From contig NZ_JBHSTI010000008.1 in NCBI RefSeq assembly GCF_042660085.1, positions 1,659,876 through 1,691,875 of the forward strand: DNA of 32,000 bases. The letters are read 5' to 3'. The stretch comes from Longivirga aurantiaca (GTDB lineage: Bacteria; Actinomycetota; Actinomycetes; S36-B12; CAIYMF01). Below are positions 2,489 to 23,118 of the stretch, piece after piece; the stretch's first letter is position 1; each line of letters starts with the position of its first letter. The notes under the pieces are model-generated. The model was given only the letters and a program-made list of their open reading frames with translations. It ran no database searches and was not told where the DNA came from. A program made the translations under genes and the position numbers.

Positions 2489-3081
2489 CAGCGATGCCGC
2501 AGGATGCGCCGCGCCTGCTCGATGTAGAGCAGGCCCGCCCACCAGTAGAGGACGGTGCCCCAGATCGCGAACGCCCAACCGGCGACGCGGGCGACGTCGT
2601 GGAAGTCGATGCCGGCGGCGTCCGCTCCGTCCCCGAGCAGGAGCAGCGGGAAGGCGTAGAGCAGGTTGAACGTGGCCGCCTTGCCCAGGAAGTGCACGGG
2701 CAGACCGGTGATGCCCCGGCGCTTCAACGCCGCGAGGTACAGCCCGACGACCAGGTCGCGCGACAGCAGCAGGATCACGAGCCACCACGGCACGATGCCG
2801 CGGATGGCGAGCCCGATGAGCGTCGCGGCGATGTACAGACGGTCGGCGAGCGGGTCGAGCAGCTGGCCGAGGCGGCTGATCGAGTGGGTGGCGCGGGCGA
2901 TCTTGCCGTCGAGCCAGTCGGTGAAGCCGGCGACCAGGAGGACGACCAGCGCCCACCCGTCGGCCTGCGGCACCAGGATCAGCCAGAGGAACAGCGGGAC
3001 ACCGAGGAGCCGTAGGAACGACAAGGCGTTGGGCACGGTGAGGATCCGGTCGGTCTGGACCTCCGTCTCCTGCACGTCCAT
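2488..3081 (-). CDS. pgsA: CDP-alcohol phosphatidyltransferase (PgsA / cardiolipin-synthase type)
   Basis: CDP-alcohol phosphatidyltransferase signature DWLDGKIAR...GQLLDPLADR, with a multi-TM hydrophobic profile. Confidence 0.85.
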   Translation of the reverse strand: MDVQETEVQTDRILTVPNALSFLRLLGVPLFLWLILVPQADGWALVVLLVAGFTDWLDGKIARATHSISRLGQLLDPLADRLYIAATLIGLAIRGIVPWWLVILLLSRDLVVGLYLAALKRRGITGLPVHFLGKAATFNLLYAFPLLLLGDGADAAGIDFHDVARVAGWAFAIWGTVLYWWAGLLYIEQARRILRHR

Positions 3082-3090
3082 GCCGCGACC

Positions 3091-3873
3091 CTAACCGCCC
3101 GAGGGGTCGCCCGGAGCCGCCGCGCCCGGCAGCACCGTGTCGCCCGCCGGGGCCGCGTGCGCACCGACGGGACCGGGTGCCCGGCTGCGGCGGGCCGCGA
3201 GCATCAGGCCCACTGCAAGGCAGAGCAGCACGATGCCGGCACCGCCGAGGACGAGCGCCGCAGGCCAGGCGCGGTCGACCTCGAGCGTCACATTGAGGTC
3301 CACGTCCACCCCCGGTGTCGCGTCGGCGCGCATGAGCACGACCGTCGCGCCCTCAGGGATGCGCGCCGTGAGCACCGCTGGCGCGCCCTCGTCCTGTCGC
3401 AGCCAGAACTGCTGGGAGGACGGCGGTGGCGGCTGCTGGGTCCCCGGAACCTGGCGGGTCGTGGTCGCTCCCCCGCTGGTCAGCTCCGCAACCACGTCGT
3501 ACGGGGCACCGGCCAGGTAGATGTCGAGATCGGTGCCGGCCGCGGCACCGAGGAAGACAGGTGAGCCGTCGGCGGACCGGGCGGAGAGGGTGAGCACCCC
3601 TACCCCCTCGGGCACCGGGAGCCCCACCGCGTCGATCTGGAGGCCGTCCACGAGGAGGGCCACACCCGTCGCGCTGGCGCGGGTGGGCGTGGTGGACACG
3701 GTGCCGTCCGGGCCGAACGCCATCCCGACGACGATCCCGCCTGCGAGCAGTGCGCCACCCACGACGGCGGCCGCGACCCCCGACACGACGAACCCTGCAC
3801 GTGCCACGTCGTCACGGTATCCCCGACGGGGCGACGACGACCCCGCGCCACGACGCGGACCGCCCGCGCGCAC
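3091..3873 (-). CDS. Hypothetical membrane protein with N- and C-terminal TM anchors and a central extracytoplasmic domain
   Basis: High GC3 frame. It ends 9 nt upstream of pgsA, so it is probably in the same operon. The start is uncertain: GTG at 3873, or GTG at 3807 just before the first TM segment. I recognise no family. Confidence 0.55.
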   Translation of the reverse strand: MRAGGPRRGAGSSSPRRGYRDDVARAGFVVSGVAAAVVGGALLAGGIVVGMAFGPDGTVSTTPTRASATGVALLVDGLQIDAVGLPVPEGVGVLTLSARSADGSPVFLGAAAGTDLDIYLAGAPYDVVAELTSGGATTTRQVPGTQQPPPPSSQQFWLRQDEGAPAVLTARIPEGATVVLMRADATPGVDVDLNVTLEVDRAWPAALVLGGAGIVLLCLAVGLMLAARRSRAPGPVGAHAAPAGDTVLPGAAAPGDPSGG

Positions 3874-15576: not shown

Positions 15577-15584
15577 TGTCGACA
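15577..15584. promoter_or_regulatory. TGTCGACA palindrome, copy a (tyrA-cmk spacer)
   Basis: Exact 8-bp palindrome. Context is GTGTCGACAATG. Confidence 0.4.
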
Positions 15585-15624: not shown

Positions 15625-15632
15625 TGTCGACA
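15625..15632. promoter_or_regulatory. TGTCGACA palindrome, copy b (tyrA-cmk spacer)
   Basis: Exact copy. Context is GCATGTCGACAAAAC, a 15-mer identical to copy d on the opposite strand. Confidence 0.4.
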
Positions 15633-17262: not shown

Positions 17263-17541
17263 TCAGTCGTTGGAGCGACCTGCCATTTTAGCCTTTTGTC
17301 GATCTAACGTCTTCTCAGCAATGCGACTTGGCGATCCATCACCAGGAGCCGGATCCAGCACCGCGTGCGCGGAAGCGACTGCTCCCCCGTCGGCATCGCC
17401 CTGGTCGTCGGCCGGTGCCGGCCCGTCCTGGCCCACGGGCGCGCTGCTGAGCTCGACCTGGCCCCCTGACCTGGGCAGATAGTGGCAACGCCGGCAGGGA
17501 GCTCGGACCCATGCTGAGGGCTGATAGCGTTTTGTCGACAT
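17263..17541 (-). CDS. Very tentative small ORF (92 aa; MSTKRYQPSAWVRAPCRRCHY...) in the rluB-aroH spacer
   Basis: Moderate GC3 (about 70% in its centre) and the same orientation as its neighbours. The ATG lies inside TGTCGACA copy d, and a TTGACG-N19-TACGGT promoter-like element lies upstream. I recognise no homology and the sequence is low-complexity. Confidence 0.2.
   Translation of the reverse strand: MSTKRYQPSAWVRAPCRRCHYLPRSGGQVELSSAPVGQDGPAPADDQGDADGGAVASAHAVLDPAPGDGSPSRIAEKTLDRQKAKMAGRSND
17533..17540. promoter_or_regulatory. TGTCGACA palindrome, copy d (rluB-aroH spacer)
   Basis: Exact copy. Context is GTTTTGTCGACATGC. Degenerate relatives lie at 17297-17304 (TGTCGATC), 17577-17584 (TGTCGTCA) and 17612-17619 (TGTCGACG). 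Confidence 0.4.
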
Positions 17542-18439: not shown

Positions 18440-19189
18440 TCACATTTCGTCGGCTAGTGCATCAAGTAGTTCAATGTCCGGCAGGTAGTCAGCCACCGGG
18501 GGCAACTCTGCCAGGTCGGTGATCCCCAGCCGCTCGAGGAACAGGTCCGTGGTCCGGTACAGGATCGCCTGGCTCGTCGGGTCGTGCCCCGCCTCGCCGA
18601 TGAGCCCCCGGCTCGTGAGCGTGCGGATGACGCCGTCGACGTTCACCCCGCGCACGGCGGAGATGCGCGCCCGGCTGACGGGCTGCCGGTACGCGACCAC
18701 GGCGAGGGTCTCCAGGGCGGCCTGGGTGAGCTTGGCCTGCTGCCCGTCACGCACGAACCGCTCCACGACCTCGGAGCAGTCCGCGCGCGTGTAGAACCGC
18801 CAGCCGCCGGCGACCTCGCGCAGGTCGAACCCCCGGCCCGCCTCGGCATAGCCGGCGGACAGGCTCCGGACGGCCTCCTCGACCTCGGCGGTGGTGCGCC
18901 GGACGATCGTGGCGAGCGTCGGGATGTCCAGGGGCTCGTCGGTCACGAGGAGCACGGCCTCGAGGGCGGCGTCGAGAGTGGGGGCTCCCAGGGTGTCGCT
19001 CGGCTGGTCGTCCTCGTCGGTGCCGTCCGGCTCCGACGCCTCGTCGGCGTCCGCCGCGGGGCGCTCGGAGGCGCGTGCGGGCGCCTCTGCGGCCTCCGGG
19101 GGCGTCGGGGCGTCCTCGGACGTCGTCGCGGCCTCCAGCGCCTCCACGGGGGGCTGCTGGGCCTGCTCGGTCACGTCGGGGTCGGTCAC
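18440..19189 (-). CDS. scpB: Segregation and condensation protein B with a disordered acidic/Pro-rich N-terminus
   Basis: LEAVLLVTDEPL...GFDLREVAGGWRFYT...LTQAALETLAVVAYRQPVSRARISAVRGVNVDGVIRTL. The GTG at 19189 forms a GTGA overlap with the scpA stop. Confidence 0.9.
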   Translation of the reverse strand: MTDPDVTEQAQQPPVEALEAATTSEDAPTPPEAAEAPARASERPAADADEASEPDGTDEDDQPSDTLGAPTLDAALEAVLLVTDEPLDIPTLATIVRRTTAEVEEAVRSLSAGYAEAGRGFDLREVAGGWRFYTRADCSEVVERFVRDGQQAKLTQAALETLAVVAYRQPVSRARISAVRGVNVDGVIRTLTSRGLIGEAGHDPTSQAILYRTTDLFLERLGITDLAELPPVADYLPDIELLDALADEM

Positions 19190-20241
19190 GCGTCGGCCTC
19201 CGGGCTCCTGTGCTGGTCGATCGGGTCCGCGTCCTCGTCGTCGCCGAGCACGACGCCCGAGATGTCTGCGATGTCCTGGTCTGTGACCTCGGCCGCGGCC
19301 TCGGGCTCGGGCTCCGCGACCGGGCTGCCCTCGTACTCCTCGGCCGCCACGGCCACCTCGCCGTCGGCGGGCCCCGTCCACCGGATGTGGAGCTCCCCGA
19401 GGGGGTCGACCTGGTCGAACGCGACCGATCCCTCGCGATAGAGCTCGAGCAGGGCCAGGAAGCGCGCCACCACGAGCAGCGTGGTGTCGCAGTCGGCGGT
19501 GAGGTGCCGGAAGGTCTGCGAGGGGTTCCGGCGCAGCCGGTCCACGAGCACCGCGGCCTGCTCACGCACGCTCACGCGCGGGGCATGGATGTGCGATATG
19601 CCAACGGACGCAACCGGTTTCGGTGCAAGCGCCCGAGCCGCAAGCGCAGCGAACTCGGCCGGGCCGAGACCGATCAGCACCTCGGGTAGGAGGTCGGAGT
19701 ACTCAGGGTCGAGGCCGGCCGTGCGGGGGCGGCGGCGTGCTCCCGTGCGGAGCATCTCCCCCAGCAGCTCGGAGACGTCGCGGAAAGCCCTGTACTGCAG
19801 CAGCCGCGCGAAGAGCAGGTCACGGGCCTCGAGCAGGGCGAGGTCCTCCTCGTCCTCGACCTCGCCGGACGGGAGCAGCCGAGCGGCCTTGAGGTCGAGC
19901 AGAGTCGCGGCCACGACGAGGAACTCGGTGGCCTCGTCGAGGTCCCACTCGGGCCCACGGGCCCGGATGTGCGCGAGGAAGTCGTCGATCACGGTGTGCA
20001 GCGCGAGCACCGTGACGTCGAGCTTGTGCTTGGCGATCAACGAGAGCAGGAGGTCGAACGGGCCCTCGAACTCGTCGAGCCGCACCGAGAAGCTGTCGCT
20101 GGGCTCCGCCGGCGGGGCGTCCGGGGGGCCGCTGACCTCGCCGTCGGGGCCCTGGTCCTGCGTCATCACGACGTCGTCGCCGGGCACCGCACCCGTGGCG
20201 GGGGCGGCCCCGGTCGGGTCGGAGGCGAGGACGTCGATCAC
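19186..20241 (-). CDS. scpA: Segregation and condensation protein A (kleisin)
   Basis: FSVRLDEFEGPFDLLLSLIAKHKLDVTVLAL...LLELYREG. The start is uncertain: GTG at 20241, or the internal ATG 25 codons downstream. Confidence 0.88.
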   Translation of the reverse strand: MIDVLASDPTGAAPATGAVPGDDVVMTQDQGPDGEVSGPPDAPPAEPSDSFSVRLDEFEGPFDLLLSLIAKHKLDVTVLALHTVIDDFLAHIRARGPEWDLDEATEFLVVAATLLDLKAARLLPSGEVEDEEDLALLEARDLLFARLLQYRAFRDVSELLGEMLRTGARRRPRTAGLDPEYSDLLPEVLIGLGPAEFAALAARALAPKPVASVGISHIHAPRVSVREQAAVLVDRLRRNPSQTFRHLTADCDTTLLVVARFLALLELYREGSVAFDQVDPLGELHIRWTGPADGEVAVAAEEYEGSPVAEPEPEAAAEVTDQDIADISGVVLGDDEDADPIDQHRSPEADA

Positions 20242-20369: not shown

Positions 20370-20377
20370 TGTCGACA
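20370..20377. promoter_or_regulatory. TGTCGACA palindrome, copy g (RHH-scpA spacer)
   Basis: Exact copy. It lies 4 nt from the base of the 20381-20422 hairpin. Confidence 0.4.
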
Positions 20378-20380
20378 GAT

Positions 20381-20422
20381 CGATGACCTCTGACCTGCGA
20401 CGACGCAGGTCAGAGGTCATCG
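20381..20422 (-). terminator. Perfect 19-bp stem / 4-nt loop hairpin 10 nt after the RHH-gene stop. Both arms contain the GCAGGTCAGAGG motif.
   Basis: CGATGACCTCTGACCTGCG-ACGA-CGCAGGTCAGAGGTCATCG. Confidence 0.7.
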
Positions 20423-20431
20423 GGGTCGCGT

Positions 20432-20893
20432 TCAGAGACCGCGCAGGCGACGGACGAGGATGCTCTCGTCGCCCTTGGCCTCCAGGTCGGCGATCACCAC
20501 GGCCACCGCCTCCCGCACGATCCGGCCGCGGTCCACGGCCATGCCGTGCTGGGCTCGCAGGGCGAGCTTGGCCTGCTCGAGGGCGACGAGCTCCTCCGGC
20601 GAGACGTAGACGGTGATCTTCTCCTCGTGCCGCTCGCGACCCGTCGGGCGCAGATCGCCCGGACGCTGGCGGCGCTTGGGCGTCGTGCGCACCCGGGTCG
20701 GGGTGCCGGCGACCGTCGCGCCGGCAGGTGCGACCTCAGCGGCCTGCGACCGGGTCTCGGCGGGCGTCGGCGCCAGGGCCACGACGGCAGGTGCCGGGTC
20801 GGCCGAGGAGTCGGTGTCCGGCTCGGGCGCCGGTGCGTCCGACGTACGGCGGAACAGCTCGTCCGCCCCGGGCAGCGTCGCGCGTCGGCTCAT
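20432..20893 (-). CDS. Small protein with a disordered basic/Pro-Ala-rich N-terminus and a C-terminal ribbon-helix-helix-like DNA-binding domain. Candidate ParA partner.
   Basis: The C-terminal sequence EKITVYVSPEELVALEQAKLALRAQHGMAVDRGRIVREAVAVVIADLE fits the strand-helix-turn-helix pattern of CopG/Arc/ParG proteins. ATGA overlap with the parA-like stop. Confidence 0.6.
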   Translation of the reverse strand: MSRRATLPGADELFRRTSDAPAPEPDTDSSADPAPAVVALAPTPAETRSQAAEVAPAGATVAGTPTRVRTTPKRRQRPGDLRPTGRERHEEKITVYVSPEELVALEQAKLALRAQHGMAVDRGRIVREAVAVVIADLEAKGDESILVRRLRGL

Positions 20894-21810
20894 GGTGCCA
20901 GCACCTCCCTCGCGAGCTGGCGGTACGCCGCGGCGCCCGTCGAGCTCGATGCGTACGTCGTGATGGGCTCGCCCGCGACGGTCGTCTCGGGGAATCGGAC
21001 CGTGCGGGCGATGACCGTGTGGAACACCTTGTCGTCGAACGCCTCGACAACCCGGGCCAGGACCTCGCGGCTGTGCAAGGTGCGGCTGTCGTACATCGTG
21101 GCTAGAATTCCCTCAACCTCAAGTCGAGGGTTAATCCGTTCCTGGACGCGGTAGATGGTGTCCATGAGCAGGGCTACACCGCGCAGGGCGAAGAACTCGC
21201 ACTCCAGCGGGATGATCACGCCGTCGGCCGCGGCCAGCGCGTTGACCGTCAGCAGGCCCAGGGAGGGCTGGCAGTCGATCAGGACGATGTCGTACTCCCC
21301 CAGCACCGGCGCGAGCACGCGGGCGAGGGTCTGCTCCCGGGCGACCTCCGAGACCAGCTGCACCTCGGCGGCGGACAGGTCGATGTTGCCCGGCAGCAGG
21401 TCCAGGCCGGCGACGGAGGTCTTGAGCAGGACGTCCTCGATGGCCACGTCGCGCTGCATGAGCAGGTTGTAGACGGTGAGGTCGAGCTCGTGCGGGTTGA
21501 CCCCGAGCCCGACCGAGAGCGCCCCCTGCGGGTCGAAGTCGACGACCAGGACCCGACGGCCCGCCTCGGCGAGCGCGGCCCCGAGGTTGATCGTGGTGGT
21601 GGTCTTGCCCACGCCGCCCTTCTGGTTGCACAGGGCGATGACGCGTGCGGGTCCGTGCGACTCCAGCACCGGCGGCTCGGGGAACACCTGCTTGGGCCGC
21701 AGCGTCGCGTCGAGCTCGACGGGCTCGGTGCCGGCGGCCGGGAGACCTGGCGTCGGGCTGTCGTCCGCGGGAGCCGGGTCCGGCTCGGCCGCGTTTGTCG
21801 ACATAGTCAC
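20890..21810 (-). CDS. ParA/Soj-family (deviant Walker A) ATPase, the orphan chromosomal type found next to scpAB/xerD in actinobacteria
   Basis: VIALCNQKGGVGKTTTTINLGAALAE...VLVVDFDPQG...IVLIDCQPSLG. The start is either the GTG at 21810 or the ATG at 21804. Confidence 0.9.
   Translation of the reverse strand: MTMSTNAAEPDPAPADDSPTPGLPAAGTEPVELDATLRPKQVFPEPPVLESHGPARVIALCNQKGGVGKTTTTINLGAALAEAGRRVLVVDFDPQGALSVGLGVNPHELDLTVYNLLMQRDVAIEDVLLKTSVAGLDLLPGNIDLSAAEVQLVSEVAREQTLARVLAPVLGEYDIVLIDCQPSLGLLTVNALAAADGVIIPLECEFFALRGVALLMDTIYRVQERINPRLEVEGILATMYDSRTLHSREVLARVVEAFDDKVFHTVIARTVRFPETTVAGEPITTYASSSTGAAAYRQLAREVLAP
21796..21803. promoter_or_regulatory. TGTCGACA palindrome, copy h (overlaps the parA-like start codon region)
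   Basis: Exact copy. On the minus strand it reads ATGTCGACAAAC, coding M-S-T-N. Confidence 0.4.
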
Positions 21811-21958
21811 AAGCAGACTCGTCTCTGTCGCGATAGAAATCCTGATCGCCTTGGCGATGGAGCGTCACCCTAGGCGCGTCCGCGCGCCGGAGGCAAGACG
21901 CGGGCGTGACCGGTCAGCCGTCCGGGGGCATCCGGGCGCGGGCGAGCGCCGCGAAACC

Positions 21959-21970
21959 GCAGGTCAGAGG
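21959..21970. repeat. GCAGGTCAGAGG 12-mer, 4 nt beyond the xerD stop
   Basis: Exact match to 15671-15682 and 20405-20416. The match to the tyrA copy extends to GCAGGTCAGAGGC. Confidence 0.6.
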
Positions 21971-21974
21971 CCTG

Positions 21975-22961
21975 TCAGGACCGAGCGCGGGGATGCGCGA
22001 GCGCGTAGACCTCGCGCAGCCTGTCGACCGTCACCAGGGTGTAGATCTGGGTCGTCGTCACCGAGGCGTGCCCCAGGAGCTCCTGCACCACGCGCACGTC
22101 GGCCCCGCCGTCGAGCAGGTGCGTGGCGAAGCTGTGCCGCAGCGTGTGCGGCGAGACGTCCGCGGTGACCCCCGCGCGCTCGACCGCCGCGGCGAGCACC
22201 GTCCAGGCGCTCTGCCGCGTGAGCCGGCCCCCGCGGGCGTTGAGGAACAGCGCCGGGCTGCCCGTGCCGGCAGCCACGAGCACCGGACGGCCGCGCACGA
22301 GATAGGCCTCCACGGCTGCGACCGCCATCCGCCCGACGGGCACGAGGCGCTCCTTGGAGCCCTTCCCGCGCAGCAGCACAGAGGCGGAGTCGAGGTCGAG
22401 GTCGTCGACGTCGAGGCCGATCGCCTCGGAGATGCGCGCACCGGTGCCGTACAGCACCTCGAGCAGCGCCCGGTCGCGCAGCTCGCGGGCCGCGCCCTCT
22501 CCCCCGGCGGCGGCGAGGATGGCCTCGATCTCGGCGACCGAGATGGCCTTGGGCAGCTTGCGGGTCTGGCTGGGCGGCCGCACCTCCTTGCCCGGGTCCG
22601 AGGTGGTGAGGCCCTCCCGCGCGGCGAACCGGTGGAAGCCGCGCACGGCAACCACCGTGCGGCCCGCGCTCGAGGCGGCCAGGGGCCTGTGCTCGGCGTC
22701 GCCGGCTCGGAGCGCGAGGAGGAAGTCGCTGATGTCGGTCTCGGTCACCTGGTCGGGCTCGGTGATCCCGCGGGACGACGTCCAGGCGAGGTAGCGGGCG
22801 AGGTCGCGGCGGTAGGCGACCAGCGAGTTGGGGGCGAGACCGCGCTCCACCGCCAGGTGGTCGAGGTAGAGGGTGACGGCGCGGGCGAGGGCGGACGGCC
22901 GGGCCGGGGCCGCCTCGGTGACGTCGCCGACGGACTCACCGCCGTCCTGCTGGTCGCTCAC
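21975..22961 (-). CDS. xerD: Site-specific tyrosine recombinase XerD
   Basis: The N-terminal SAM-like domain ([23 protein letters not shown]) and catalytic residues (ARISE...[12 protein letters not shown]...[14 protein letters not shown]) are present. The GTG at 22961 is preferred because codons upstream of it are poor. Confidence 0.9.
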
Positions 22962-23118
22962 ATCACGACCGTACCTGACATAACGGACGACGGGCCGCGA
23001 CCACCCGTCCCCAGTGCGCGGCGGTGCGCGTGTCGTCCACATCGCGAACGGGCCCGAGCGTGGCCCGGTCGCAGCCTCCGGTCACGGTCCTCGCCACACC
23101 CCGACCCGAGGAGACCCC

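Follow-up and report, generated by a model that had tools for sequence, protein, structure and literature searches.

A ParA gene and a coupled small gene between xerD and scpAB

We analyzed a 32,000-nucleotide (nt) stretch of the Longivirga aurantiaca genome (contig NZ_JBHSTI010000008.1, positions 1,659,876 to 1,691,875; here referred to as the window), in which a gene for a ParA-like ATPase, parA2, is directly followed by a small gene encoding a protein of 153 amino acids (aa). A preliminary description of this DNA had suggested that the two form a partition or positioning pair. Our analysis favors, with somewhat better than even confidence, the view that they constitute a chromosomal ParA-adaptor-site positioning module resembling the type Ib systems of plasmids. 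The genes on the minus strand follow each other in the order xerD, parA, the 153-aa open reading frame (ORF), scpA, scpB and rluB, and the features of the locus, in window coordinates, are as follows.

20890-21810, minus strand: parA2, ParA paralogue in the PldP/Rv1708 position, 306 aa; Pfam AAA_31, E value of 1.6e-61
20432-20893, minus strand: gene for the small partner protein (153 aa, followed by the stop); not assigned to any Pfam, NCBIfam or PHROG family; recognized by its homologues
20890-20893, minus strand: start codon of the small gene overlapping the parA stop codon (ATGA), as seen in the sequence itself
20381-20422, minus strand: 19-bp perfect stem-loop, terminator-like, from RNA folding
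21975-23042, minus strand: xerD, upstream neighbor; Pfam Phage_integrase, E value of 6.9e-45, plus an N-terminal SAM-like domain
19186-20241, minus strand: scpA, downstream neighbor; Pfam SMC_ScpA, E value of 8.7e-49
18440-19381, minus strand: scpB, downstream neighbor; Pfam SMC_ScpB, E value of 2e-50

Gene calls and Pfam matches bore out the placement of the pair between xerD and scpAB given in the preliminary description. The KGGVGKT motif that it had noted in the ParA-like protein is indeed the Walker A motif (residues 64-70), the ATGA coupling is exact, the 153-aa ORF is a real gene, and the N- and C-terminal strings quoted for its product are correct to the letter. The stem-loop begins 9 nt past the stop codon of the small gene, lacks a U tract and folds with −52.2 kcal/mol over 101 nt (z score of −4.7; 0 of 200 shuffled sequences equaled it), while a simple consensus scan of the locus for promoters and terminators called nothing, the hairpin included. 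The 12-mer GCAGGTCAGAGG, which is the 3′ arm of this hairpin, occurs again just past the xerD stop codon (21940-21975) and resembles a shared terminator-type element without a U tract. The ATGA overlap, together with the well-folding hairpin that follows the small gene, suggests a bicistronic arrangement of parA2 and the 153-aa gene.

The small gene is widespread and tied to this ParA

A word-indexed search ran into saturation with more than 7,977 homologues of comparable length, and an exhaustive profile search of 1.84 billion representative proteins, clustered at 50% identity, yielded 601 clusters at an E value of ≤1e-3 and 410 at ≤1e-10. No Pfam, NCBIfam or PHROG family matched the protein even at an E value of ≤1, and present annotation calls members of the family hypothetical or, wrongly, "cobyrinic acid a,c-diamide synthase." The small gene was present in 158 of 301 genomes of the class, corresponding to 66 of 140 genera, and in 69 of 301 genomes of the phylum, where families of other classes reached 21/21, 15/17 and 13/14. 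Streptomyces, Nanopelagicaceae/Planktophila, Pseudonocardiales, Frankiaceae, Acidothermaceae, Sporichthyaceae and Jatrophihabitantaceae are among the carriers.

In every locus analyzed (149/149), parA lies directly upstream of the small gene on the same strand, and the stop and start codons overlap by 4 nt (ATGA or GTGA) in 131 of 137 loci. The question raised at the outset, whether such an ORF is conserved downstream of orthologous ParA genes, is therefore answered in the affirmative across the phylum. In genomes of the Nanopelagicaceae/Planktophila type (loci L033-L037 and most of L039-L114), the two genes of the pair are inverted together relative to scpAB and xerD (scpB− scpA− parA+ small+ xerD−), and in Streptomyces, where xerD is absent within 3.5 kb upstream, the parA2-small gene pair is still kept. 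The small gene is old and tied to this ParA, and because the pair stays together through inversion and changes of the flanking genes, it acts as a unit.

The pair is chromosomal and lies between core genes, not on a plasmid or another low-copy replicon as is the case for type Ib systems. In eight complete genomes (G243, G132, G295, G150, G107, G043, G269 and G259), the locus lies 0.31 to 0.50 genome lengths from dnaA; in streamlined acI genomes and two other families, the distance is about 0.45 to 0.50 genome lengths, towards the terminus. These distances are compatible with a possible terminus-proximal role. The GC skew of contig C8 was too noisy to locate the terminus.

Two unusual members came from the representative-protein search. 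In P0177 (303 aa), the C-terminal half of a ParA (AAA_31 profile positions 101-176) is in frame with a full small protein, which represents either a natural fusion or a frameshift or assembly artifact. P0121 (1514 aa) carries TIR, AAA_16 and TPR matches together with a strong match to the C-terminal domain of the small protein at residues 1314-1410.

Loci without the small gene were examined as well. Of 28 parA2 loci taken from genomes that gave no match to the small gene, 20 have parA directly abutting scpA. In 6 others (L197-L202; genomes G083, G070, G051, G050, G065 and G076), a gene for an M50-like membrane protein lies between parA2 and scpA; the protein is polytopic, about 230 aa long and carries an M50/site-2-protease-like PLPPLDGG motif. 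The Corynebacterium glutamicum and Mycobacterium tuberculosis loci presumably belong to the type in which parA abuts scpA. Two further loci, L186 and L187, contain a divergent copy and a degenerate remnant, respectively. The divergent copy (L186:962-1498, minus strand, genome G047) encodes a 179-aa protein that was overlooked by the profile search at an E value of ≤1e-3, so that the counts of absence are upper bounds. It keeps the N-terminal RRVSLPGAAELFR and the C-terminal SVLVRRL and matches the small-protein family with an hhalign probability of 96%, while a Pfam scan gave no match; its strand and loop (VGLRLPS ... LPVTRSEVV) look closer to those of canonical ribbon-helix-helix (RHH) proteins. 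In L187 (genome G062), a remnant of the small gene (…DRGCAVREAIAVLPTD…) at about positions 2361-2711 in the orientation of parA is followed by an M50-like gene and looks like a decaying copy.

The small protein consists of a conserved peptide, a linker and a C-terminal block

Alignments divided the small protein into three parts, an N-terminal peptide, a variable Pro/Ala linker and a C-terminal block, which map to the window as follows.

20843-20893, minus strand: N-terminal peptide, residues 1-17 (MSRRATLPGADELFRRT), near-invariant; candidate ParA2-binding, ATPase-stimulating motif
20669-20842, minus strand: Pro/Ala-rich linker, residues 18-75, variable; predicted to be disordered (predicted local distance difference test [pLDDT] values of 46-60)
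20435-20668, minus strand: basic arm and RHH-like domain, residues 76-153, supported by motifs, AlphaFold2 and hhalign

Residues 1-17 are invariant in alignment A1. The form of this peptide in the family is M(S/T)RRx(S/T)LPGA(D/E)ELFR (short form, RRxxLPGADELFR), and its core, [LM]P[GAS]Ax[DE][LM]F, occurs in 129 of 137 proteins and is retained in other classes too. The preliminary description had called the N terminus disordered and Arg-containing; disorder holds for the linker (residues ~18-75), whereas the first 17 residues are near-invariant and AlphaFold2 predicts a short helix at residues 10-16. The linker varies in length and sequence, and whole proteins range from 95 to 190 aa.

The C-terminal block of about 80 residues follows the consensus RPTGRERH(D/E)EKITVY-S-EEL--LE-A-L-LR--HG-AVDRGRIVREA-A-V-ADLEAKG--S-LVRRLRG and comprises a basic arm (RPTGRERH), a strand (K92-V97), helix A (99-116), helix B (122-139) and a C-terminal helix (145-151). 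Two of its motifs, H[DE]xK[IMFV]T[VYF]Y and DRGR[ILV][VA]R, are found in all 137 proteins. The strand shows the alternating pattern K-I-T-V-Y-V, and its K92/T94/Y96 face is invariant. The architecture of ParG- or omega-type proteins that had been suggested for the small protein thus held up: an N-terminal peptide and a flexible linker precede a strand-helix-helix domain, a build that also resembles the ParB adaptor of pCXC100.

The C-terminal domain is probably a ribbon-helix-helix

An RHH unit consists of a strand and two helices (beta-alpha-alpha, about 45 residues), and the AlphaFold2 model of the 72-aa domain shows this arrangement. It contains strands at positions 5-8 and 11-14 and helices at 18-35, 41-62 and 64-71 (numbering of the domain), with a mean pLDDT of 81, and its second strand spans part of KITVYV. 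The model of the full-length protein has helices at residues 99-116, 122-139 and 145-151. In addition, we aligned 97 distinct C-terminal domains with 30 Pfam RHH_1 proteins from actinobacterial genomes using hhalign. The alignment scored 21.3 (P value of 3.4e-4) over 39 columns and fell in the expected register: KITVYVS coincided with the RHH strand, helix A was longer, and RIVREAV lined up with the beginning of helix B. Column shuffling gave a mean score of 9.0 (standard deviation of 1.8; maximum of 17.8) and never reached 21.3 in 300 trials, and the reversed alignment scored 13.4.

Other comparisons did not back such a fold and weighed against the adaptor model. Foldseek returned no significant RHH match for the domain, none at an E value of ≤0.001 (best E values of 2.2 in PDB and 0.7 in BFVD); on the supporting side, the highest TM-score in PDB belonged to 3no7_B, the RHH centromere-binding protein ParB of the actinobacterial plasmid pCXC100 (TM-score of 0.55/0.65, root mean square deviation of 3.2 Å, 26% identity, E value of 7.6). 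The Pfam RHH models matched neither the small protein nor 21 C-terminal domains even at an E value of ≤10, scans of the same proteins against NCBIfam and PHROG found nothing, and sequence and profile searches of PDB produced only low-complexity or designed-protein noise. In the monomer model, moreover, the arm is folded back as an intramolecular hairpin. A Foldseek search with the full-length model was uninformative, as the model is mostly disordered. Taken together, the earlier suggestion that the C terminus fits an RHH fold agrees with the AlphaFold2 model and the register of the hhalign alignment and finds no counterpart in Foldseek or the Pfam RHH models. From the sequence comparisons and the model, we consider the C-terminal domain to be probably a ribbon-helix-helix.

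The ATPase is the second ParA paralogue of the genome

In ParA2, a Soj-like core follows an N-terminal extension that is variable and about 54 aa long, and the GTG start codon of its gene is kept in relatives. A Pfam scan matched P-loop families only (AAA_31, CbiA and others) and found no helix-turn-helix (HTH) domain, which makes ParA2 a Walker-type ParA without an N-terminal HTH, as in type Ib systems. A canonical parA-parB pair is located on contig C63 of the genome (dnaA is on contig C61), and the canonical ParA is 46% identical to the ParA of the window, which is therefore the second ParA paralogue, named PldP, Rv1708 or ParA2 in the literature; this assignment is by synteny and literature. 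The ParA at the xerD/scpAB position is 63 to 85% identical across the class, and the neighborhood xerD ... parA-scpA-scpB, apart from the canonical parAB, was seen in 149 loci. A third ParA paralogue, 46% identical, is encoded on the same contig (G000:C8:490828-491565, plus strand).

PldP of C. glutamicum (Cg1610), Rv1708/MSMEG_3743 of mycobacteria and SCO1772 (ParA2) of Streptomyces have been described as "orphan" ParA-like ATPases that lack a ParB partner (PMC3989709). The ATPase activity of PldP is not stimulated by ParB, and its partner is "yet to be identified" (bioRxiv 10.1101/2025.07.02.662783). The literature that we searched treats this ParA as partnerless and mentions neither SCO1771 nor an RHH partner, which agrees with the preliminary description, where no defined RHH partner was known for the ParA of this locus.

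A palindrome marks the start of parA2 and recurs around the locus

The preliminary description had noted palindromes bracketing the pair, and TGTCGACA is indeed found on both sides of it. The copies in the window are given below.

21796-21803: TGTCGACA over parA codons 3-5 (ATG TCG ACA); candidate operator or docking site
20370-20377: second TGTCGACA, between the hairpin, 4 nt away, and scpA; conserved in position in L001-L004, the four closest relatives
17533-17540: further copy in the rluB-aroH spacer; extended form on the minus strand, ATGTCGACAAAAC
15577-15584 and 15625-15632: two further copies in the tyrA-cmk spacer

These five copies compare with 0.46 expected in the window, and all of them lie in spacers or at gene starts. 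Genome-wide, TGTCGACA occurs 31 times versus about 24 expected, mostly in coding sequence; since it is not enriched globally, only the local clustering is unusual. The longer form WWGTCGACWW is found 7 times in the 3.67-Mb genome, 3 of them within this 6-kb stretch of the window. The placement over codons 3-5 recurs across families with the consensus TGTGgcTA[T/A]GTCGACA[A/T][A/T], other lineages also have noncoding copies 0.7 to 3.2 kb downstream, and in other classes a perfect palindrome of 12 to 14 bp (ACTTGTCGACAAGT) is located upstream of parA. Candidate forms of the target of the small protein are TATGTCGACATA and ACTTGTCGACAAGT. One RHH dimer reads a palindrome of 8 bp, as MetJ does with its met-box, and the invariant strand residues of the small protein would fit an invariant DNA target.

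The motif co-occurs with the small gene. At the 5′ end of parA, [AT]GTCGACA was present in 74 of the 133 loci that contain the small gene and in none of the 28 that lack it, and the relaxed form W[GA]TCGACW in 121 of 133 and 0 of 28, respectively, whereas the control SGTCGACS was found in 14 of 133 and 8 of 28. Among the 28 loci that lack the gene are representatives of one genus in the same family and of several families in the same order. Fisher's test for the strict form gave a P value of 3.6e-9, which is overstated because related genomes are not independent; this limit, too, reduces the weight of the counts for the adaptor model. From the sequence pattern, the motif may serve as the docking site of the small protein.

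Two further readings of motif occurrences were considered and set aside. TGTCGACA copies located 900 to 1000 nt upstream of parA in Streptomyces were dropped, as they lie inside the coding sequence of ald (L-V-D-I). A DnaA box was considered because TTGTCGACA is one mismatch away from the box TTGTCCACA, but is unlikely, as the true core was found in only 2 of 133 loci.

Could the palindrome instead be unrelated to the small protein? In most loci the motif is in frame at codons 3-5, where it also encodes a conserved Ser-Thr of ParA2, and a preference for A/T-ending codons near start sites might do the rest. The AT-rich acI genomes have AAATCGACA / TAAATCGACAA at this place (TAAATCGACAA in 39 of 48 loci), a synonymous Lys change from AAG to AAA, and the start-region motif of Nanopelagicaceae/Planktophila-type genomes is TAAATCGACAA and not TA[A/T]GTCGACAA. 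Given the Ser-Thr coding and the synonymous Lys change, the constraint may in part bear on the protein or the mRNA. A different protein could also bind the same 8-mer, because three cTGTCGACAg copies are found in the promoter of a gene for a GntR/FCD-type regulator elsewhere in the genome (sites C8:579960, 580047 and 580077; locus L118, G000:C8:577500-582500). The regulator has 278 aa (L118 positions 2601-3437), two of the three copies, spaced 30 bp apart, are flanked by a TTGACA box and the start codon, and the copies are probably the regulator's own operator. All of this detracts from the palindrome as the target in the adaptor model. Set against it, TCG and ACA/ACT do not vary, even though Thr is rarely encoded by ACA (3 of the 131 Thr codons counted in seven genes of the window, against 124 for ACC and ACG together); copies stand in noncoding DNA past the hairpin, in distant spacers and in other lineages; other classes have the long perfect palindromes upstream of parA; none of the 28 loci without the small gene carries the motif; and the DnaA-box core is rare. 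That the palindrome belongs to ParA2 coding or to another binder is, in our estimate, a minor but serious possibility.

Proposed module and alternative explanations

In the module that we favor, the small protein would act as an adaptor whose C-terminal domain would dimerize as a ribbon-helix-helix. DNA would be read through the K92/T94/Y96 face of the strand, aided by the basic arm RPTGRERH, and the most likely target would be the palindrome [A/T]GTCGAC[A/T] or, in other classes, the longer ACTTGTCGACAAGT. Bound over codons 3-5 of parA, the small protein would regulate its own operon, as ParG and omega do, and the other copies of the palindrome, spread over a few kilobases around scpAB, rluB and cmk, would form a small cluster of the centromere type. 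The flexible Pro/Ala linker would present RRxxLPGADELFR to nucleoid-bound ParA2-ATP dimers and thereby stimulate their ATPase activity. As a result, this region of the chromosome would be the cargo positioned by a diffusion ratchet, or the division site would be positioned relative to it.

Three more observations weigh against such a module. About half of the genera sampled, one genus of the same family included, have parA2 but no detectable small gene, and the presence of parA2 in lineages without the small gene means that ParA2 can work without that partner. In family f22 (L141-L143, L146 and L147), the C-terminal domain and the 4-nt coupling to parA are kept and the LPGADELFR peptide is missing; the N termini of these small proteins are acidic and of low complexity. 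Finally, a tblastn search of the small protein against 72,556 plasmids gave no match, which lends descent from plasmid type Ib systems no support.

The small protein might only be an RHH autorepressor that acts at the parA start and sets the level of ParA2, with the N-terminal peptide serving another purpose, such as turnover. Its best-conserved site does overlap the start region of parA, as expected of a repressor, many RHH proteins are plain repressors, and f22 dispenses with the peptide. A pure repressor, however, needs no near-invariant peptide on a long flexible linker, which is maintained across classes; the coupling in 131 of 137 loci implies stoichiometric production of the two proteins, and further sites lie kilobases from the promoter. 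We consider this explanation unlikely.

A protein cargo deserves similar attention. The small protein would then link ParA2 to ScpAB-SMC, XerD/FtsK or the divisome instead of DNA sites, and its C-terminal domain would mainly serve dimerization or protein binding. The pair lies beside scpA and scpB in nearly all loci, mycobacterial Rv1708 was reported to bind ScpA and ParB (PMC10482377), PldP gathers at septa (PMC3989709), and the lack of a significant RHH match in Foldseek would agree with a domain of another kind. Yet the resemblance to RHH_1 is in register, the outward face of the strand is invariant and polar or aromatic, and a basic arm precedes it; furthermore, a DNA motif co-occurs with the gene, and the Nanopelagicaceae pair is uncoupled in orientation from scpAB. 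A purely protein-directed role therefore appears improbable.

An RHH antitoxin-like or unrelated nucleoid-associated protein, cotranscribed with parA2 by genomic accident, is very improbable: RHH antitoxins are common and these genomes contain several RHH_1 proteins, but no toxin gene adjoins, the small gene lies next to parA in each of the 149 loci, whatever the class, the overlap of 4 nt is kept, and the pair survives inversion and loss of flanking genes.

In a more tentative extension, which we regard as possible but less likely than not, many Actinomycetota, Streptomyces included, may have a second chromosomal partition-type system made up of ParA2, a dedicated RHH adaptor and a small cluster of TGTCGACA-type sites beside xerD/scpAB, which would actively position a terminus-proximal region or the septum relative to it. 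Such a system would be the first type-Ib-like ParABS of a bacterial chromosome and would provide the "orphan" ParA2 with its missing partner. Through 15 years of study this paralogue (PldP, Rv1708, ParA2) has been treated as an orphan, and reviews describe its ParB partner as completely lacking. The coupled small protein and its candidate DNA site make a concrete hypothesis that is testable in model Streptomyces carrying the pair, and lineages in which the gene, or just the N-terminal peptide, has been lost offer ready-made natural comparisons. Our analysis also defines an uncatalogued protein family of about 600 clusters at 50% identity, for which no Pfam or NCBIfam model exists.

Comparison with known systems

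Adaptors of ParA/MinD ATPases, such as ParB, SopB, McdB, MinE and TlpT/ParP, are encoded directly after the ATPase and carry a short basic and hydrophobic N-terminal peptide on a flexible region. The small gene has the same position and its product the same layout, although the spacing of LPGADELFR differs from that of the GLGRGLxALL motif of ParB.

The closest parallels among plasmids are type Ib systems, namely, ParF-ParG of TP228, delta-omega of pSM19035 and ParA-ParB of Leifsonia pCXC100 (PDB 3NO7). In these systems, as here, a ParA without an HTH is followed by a small protein in which a flexible tail at the N terminus precedes a strand-helix-helix domain at the C terminus, and short repeated or palindromic sites lie at the start of the operon, where binding would also autoregulate it. 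In contrast to them, the pair described here is chromosomal, phylum-wide and vertically inherited, with no homologue on the plasmids searched, and its small protein escapes the Pfam RHH/ParG models. Moreover, its candidate sites are single palindromes of 8 to 14 bp dispersed over kilobases rather than a tandem array, and its ATPase is a Soj-like paralogue with the N-terminal extension of about 54 aa. In its position next to xerD, scpA and scpB, judged by synteny, this ATPase corresponds to PldP, Rv1708 and SCO1772; unlike in the arrangement presumed for C. glutamicum and M. tuberculosis, the ATPase here and in the Streptomyces loci is coupled to a small gene.

Chromosome-encoded pairs of a ParA and an RHH protein are also found in archaea, namely, SegA-SegB of Sulfolobus and HpaA-HpaB of Haloferax volcanii. 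The lineages of these pairs are archaeal, and no sequence relationship to the pair of the window is detectable. HpaAB, in addition, maintains a secondary chromosome and does not lie beside xerD/scpAB, and the site of HpaB is unknown. The genes hpaA and hpaB overlap by 4 nt, and HpaB is a largely disordered protein of about 150 aa whose short N-terminal helix is predicted to bind the ATPase and whose RHH strand contains a Tyr needed for focus formation (bioRxiv 10.1101/2025.11.19.689047). The pair of the window shares with HpaAB the 4-nt overlap, a partner of about 150 aa and the predicted N-terminal helix, and has the invariant Tyr96 in the strand of its RHH-like domain.

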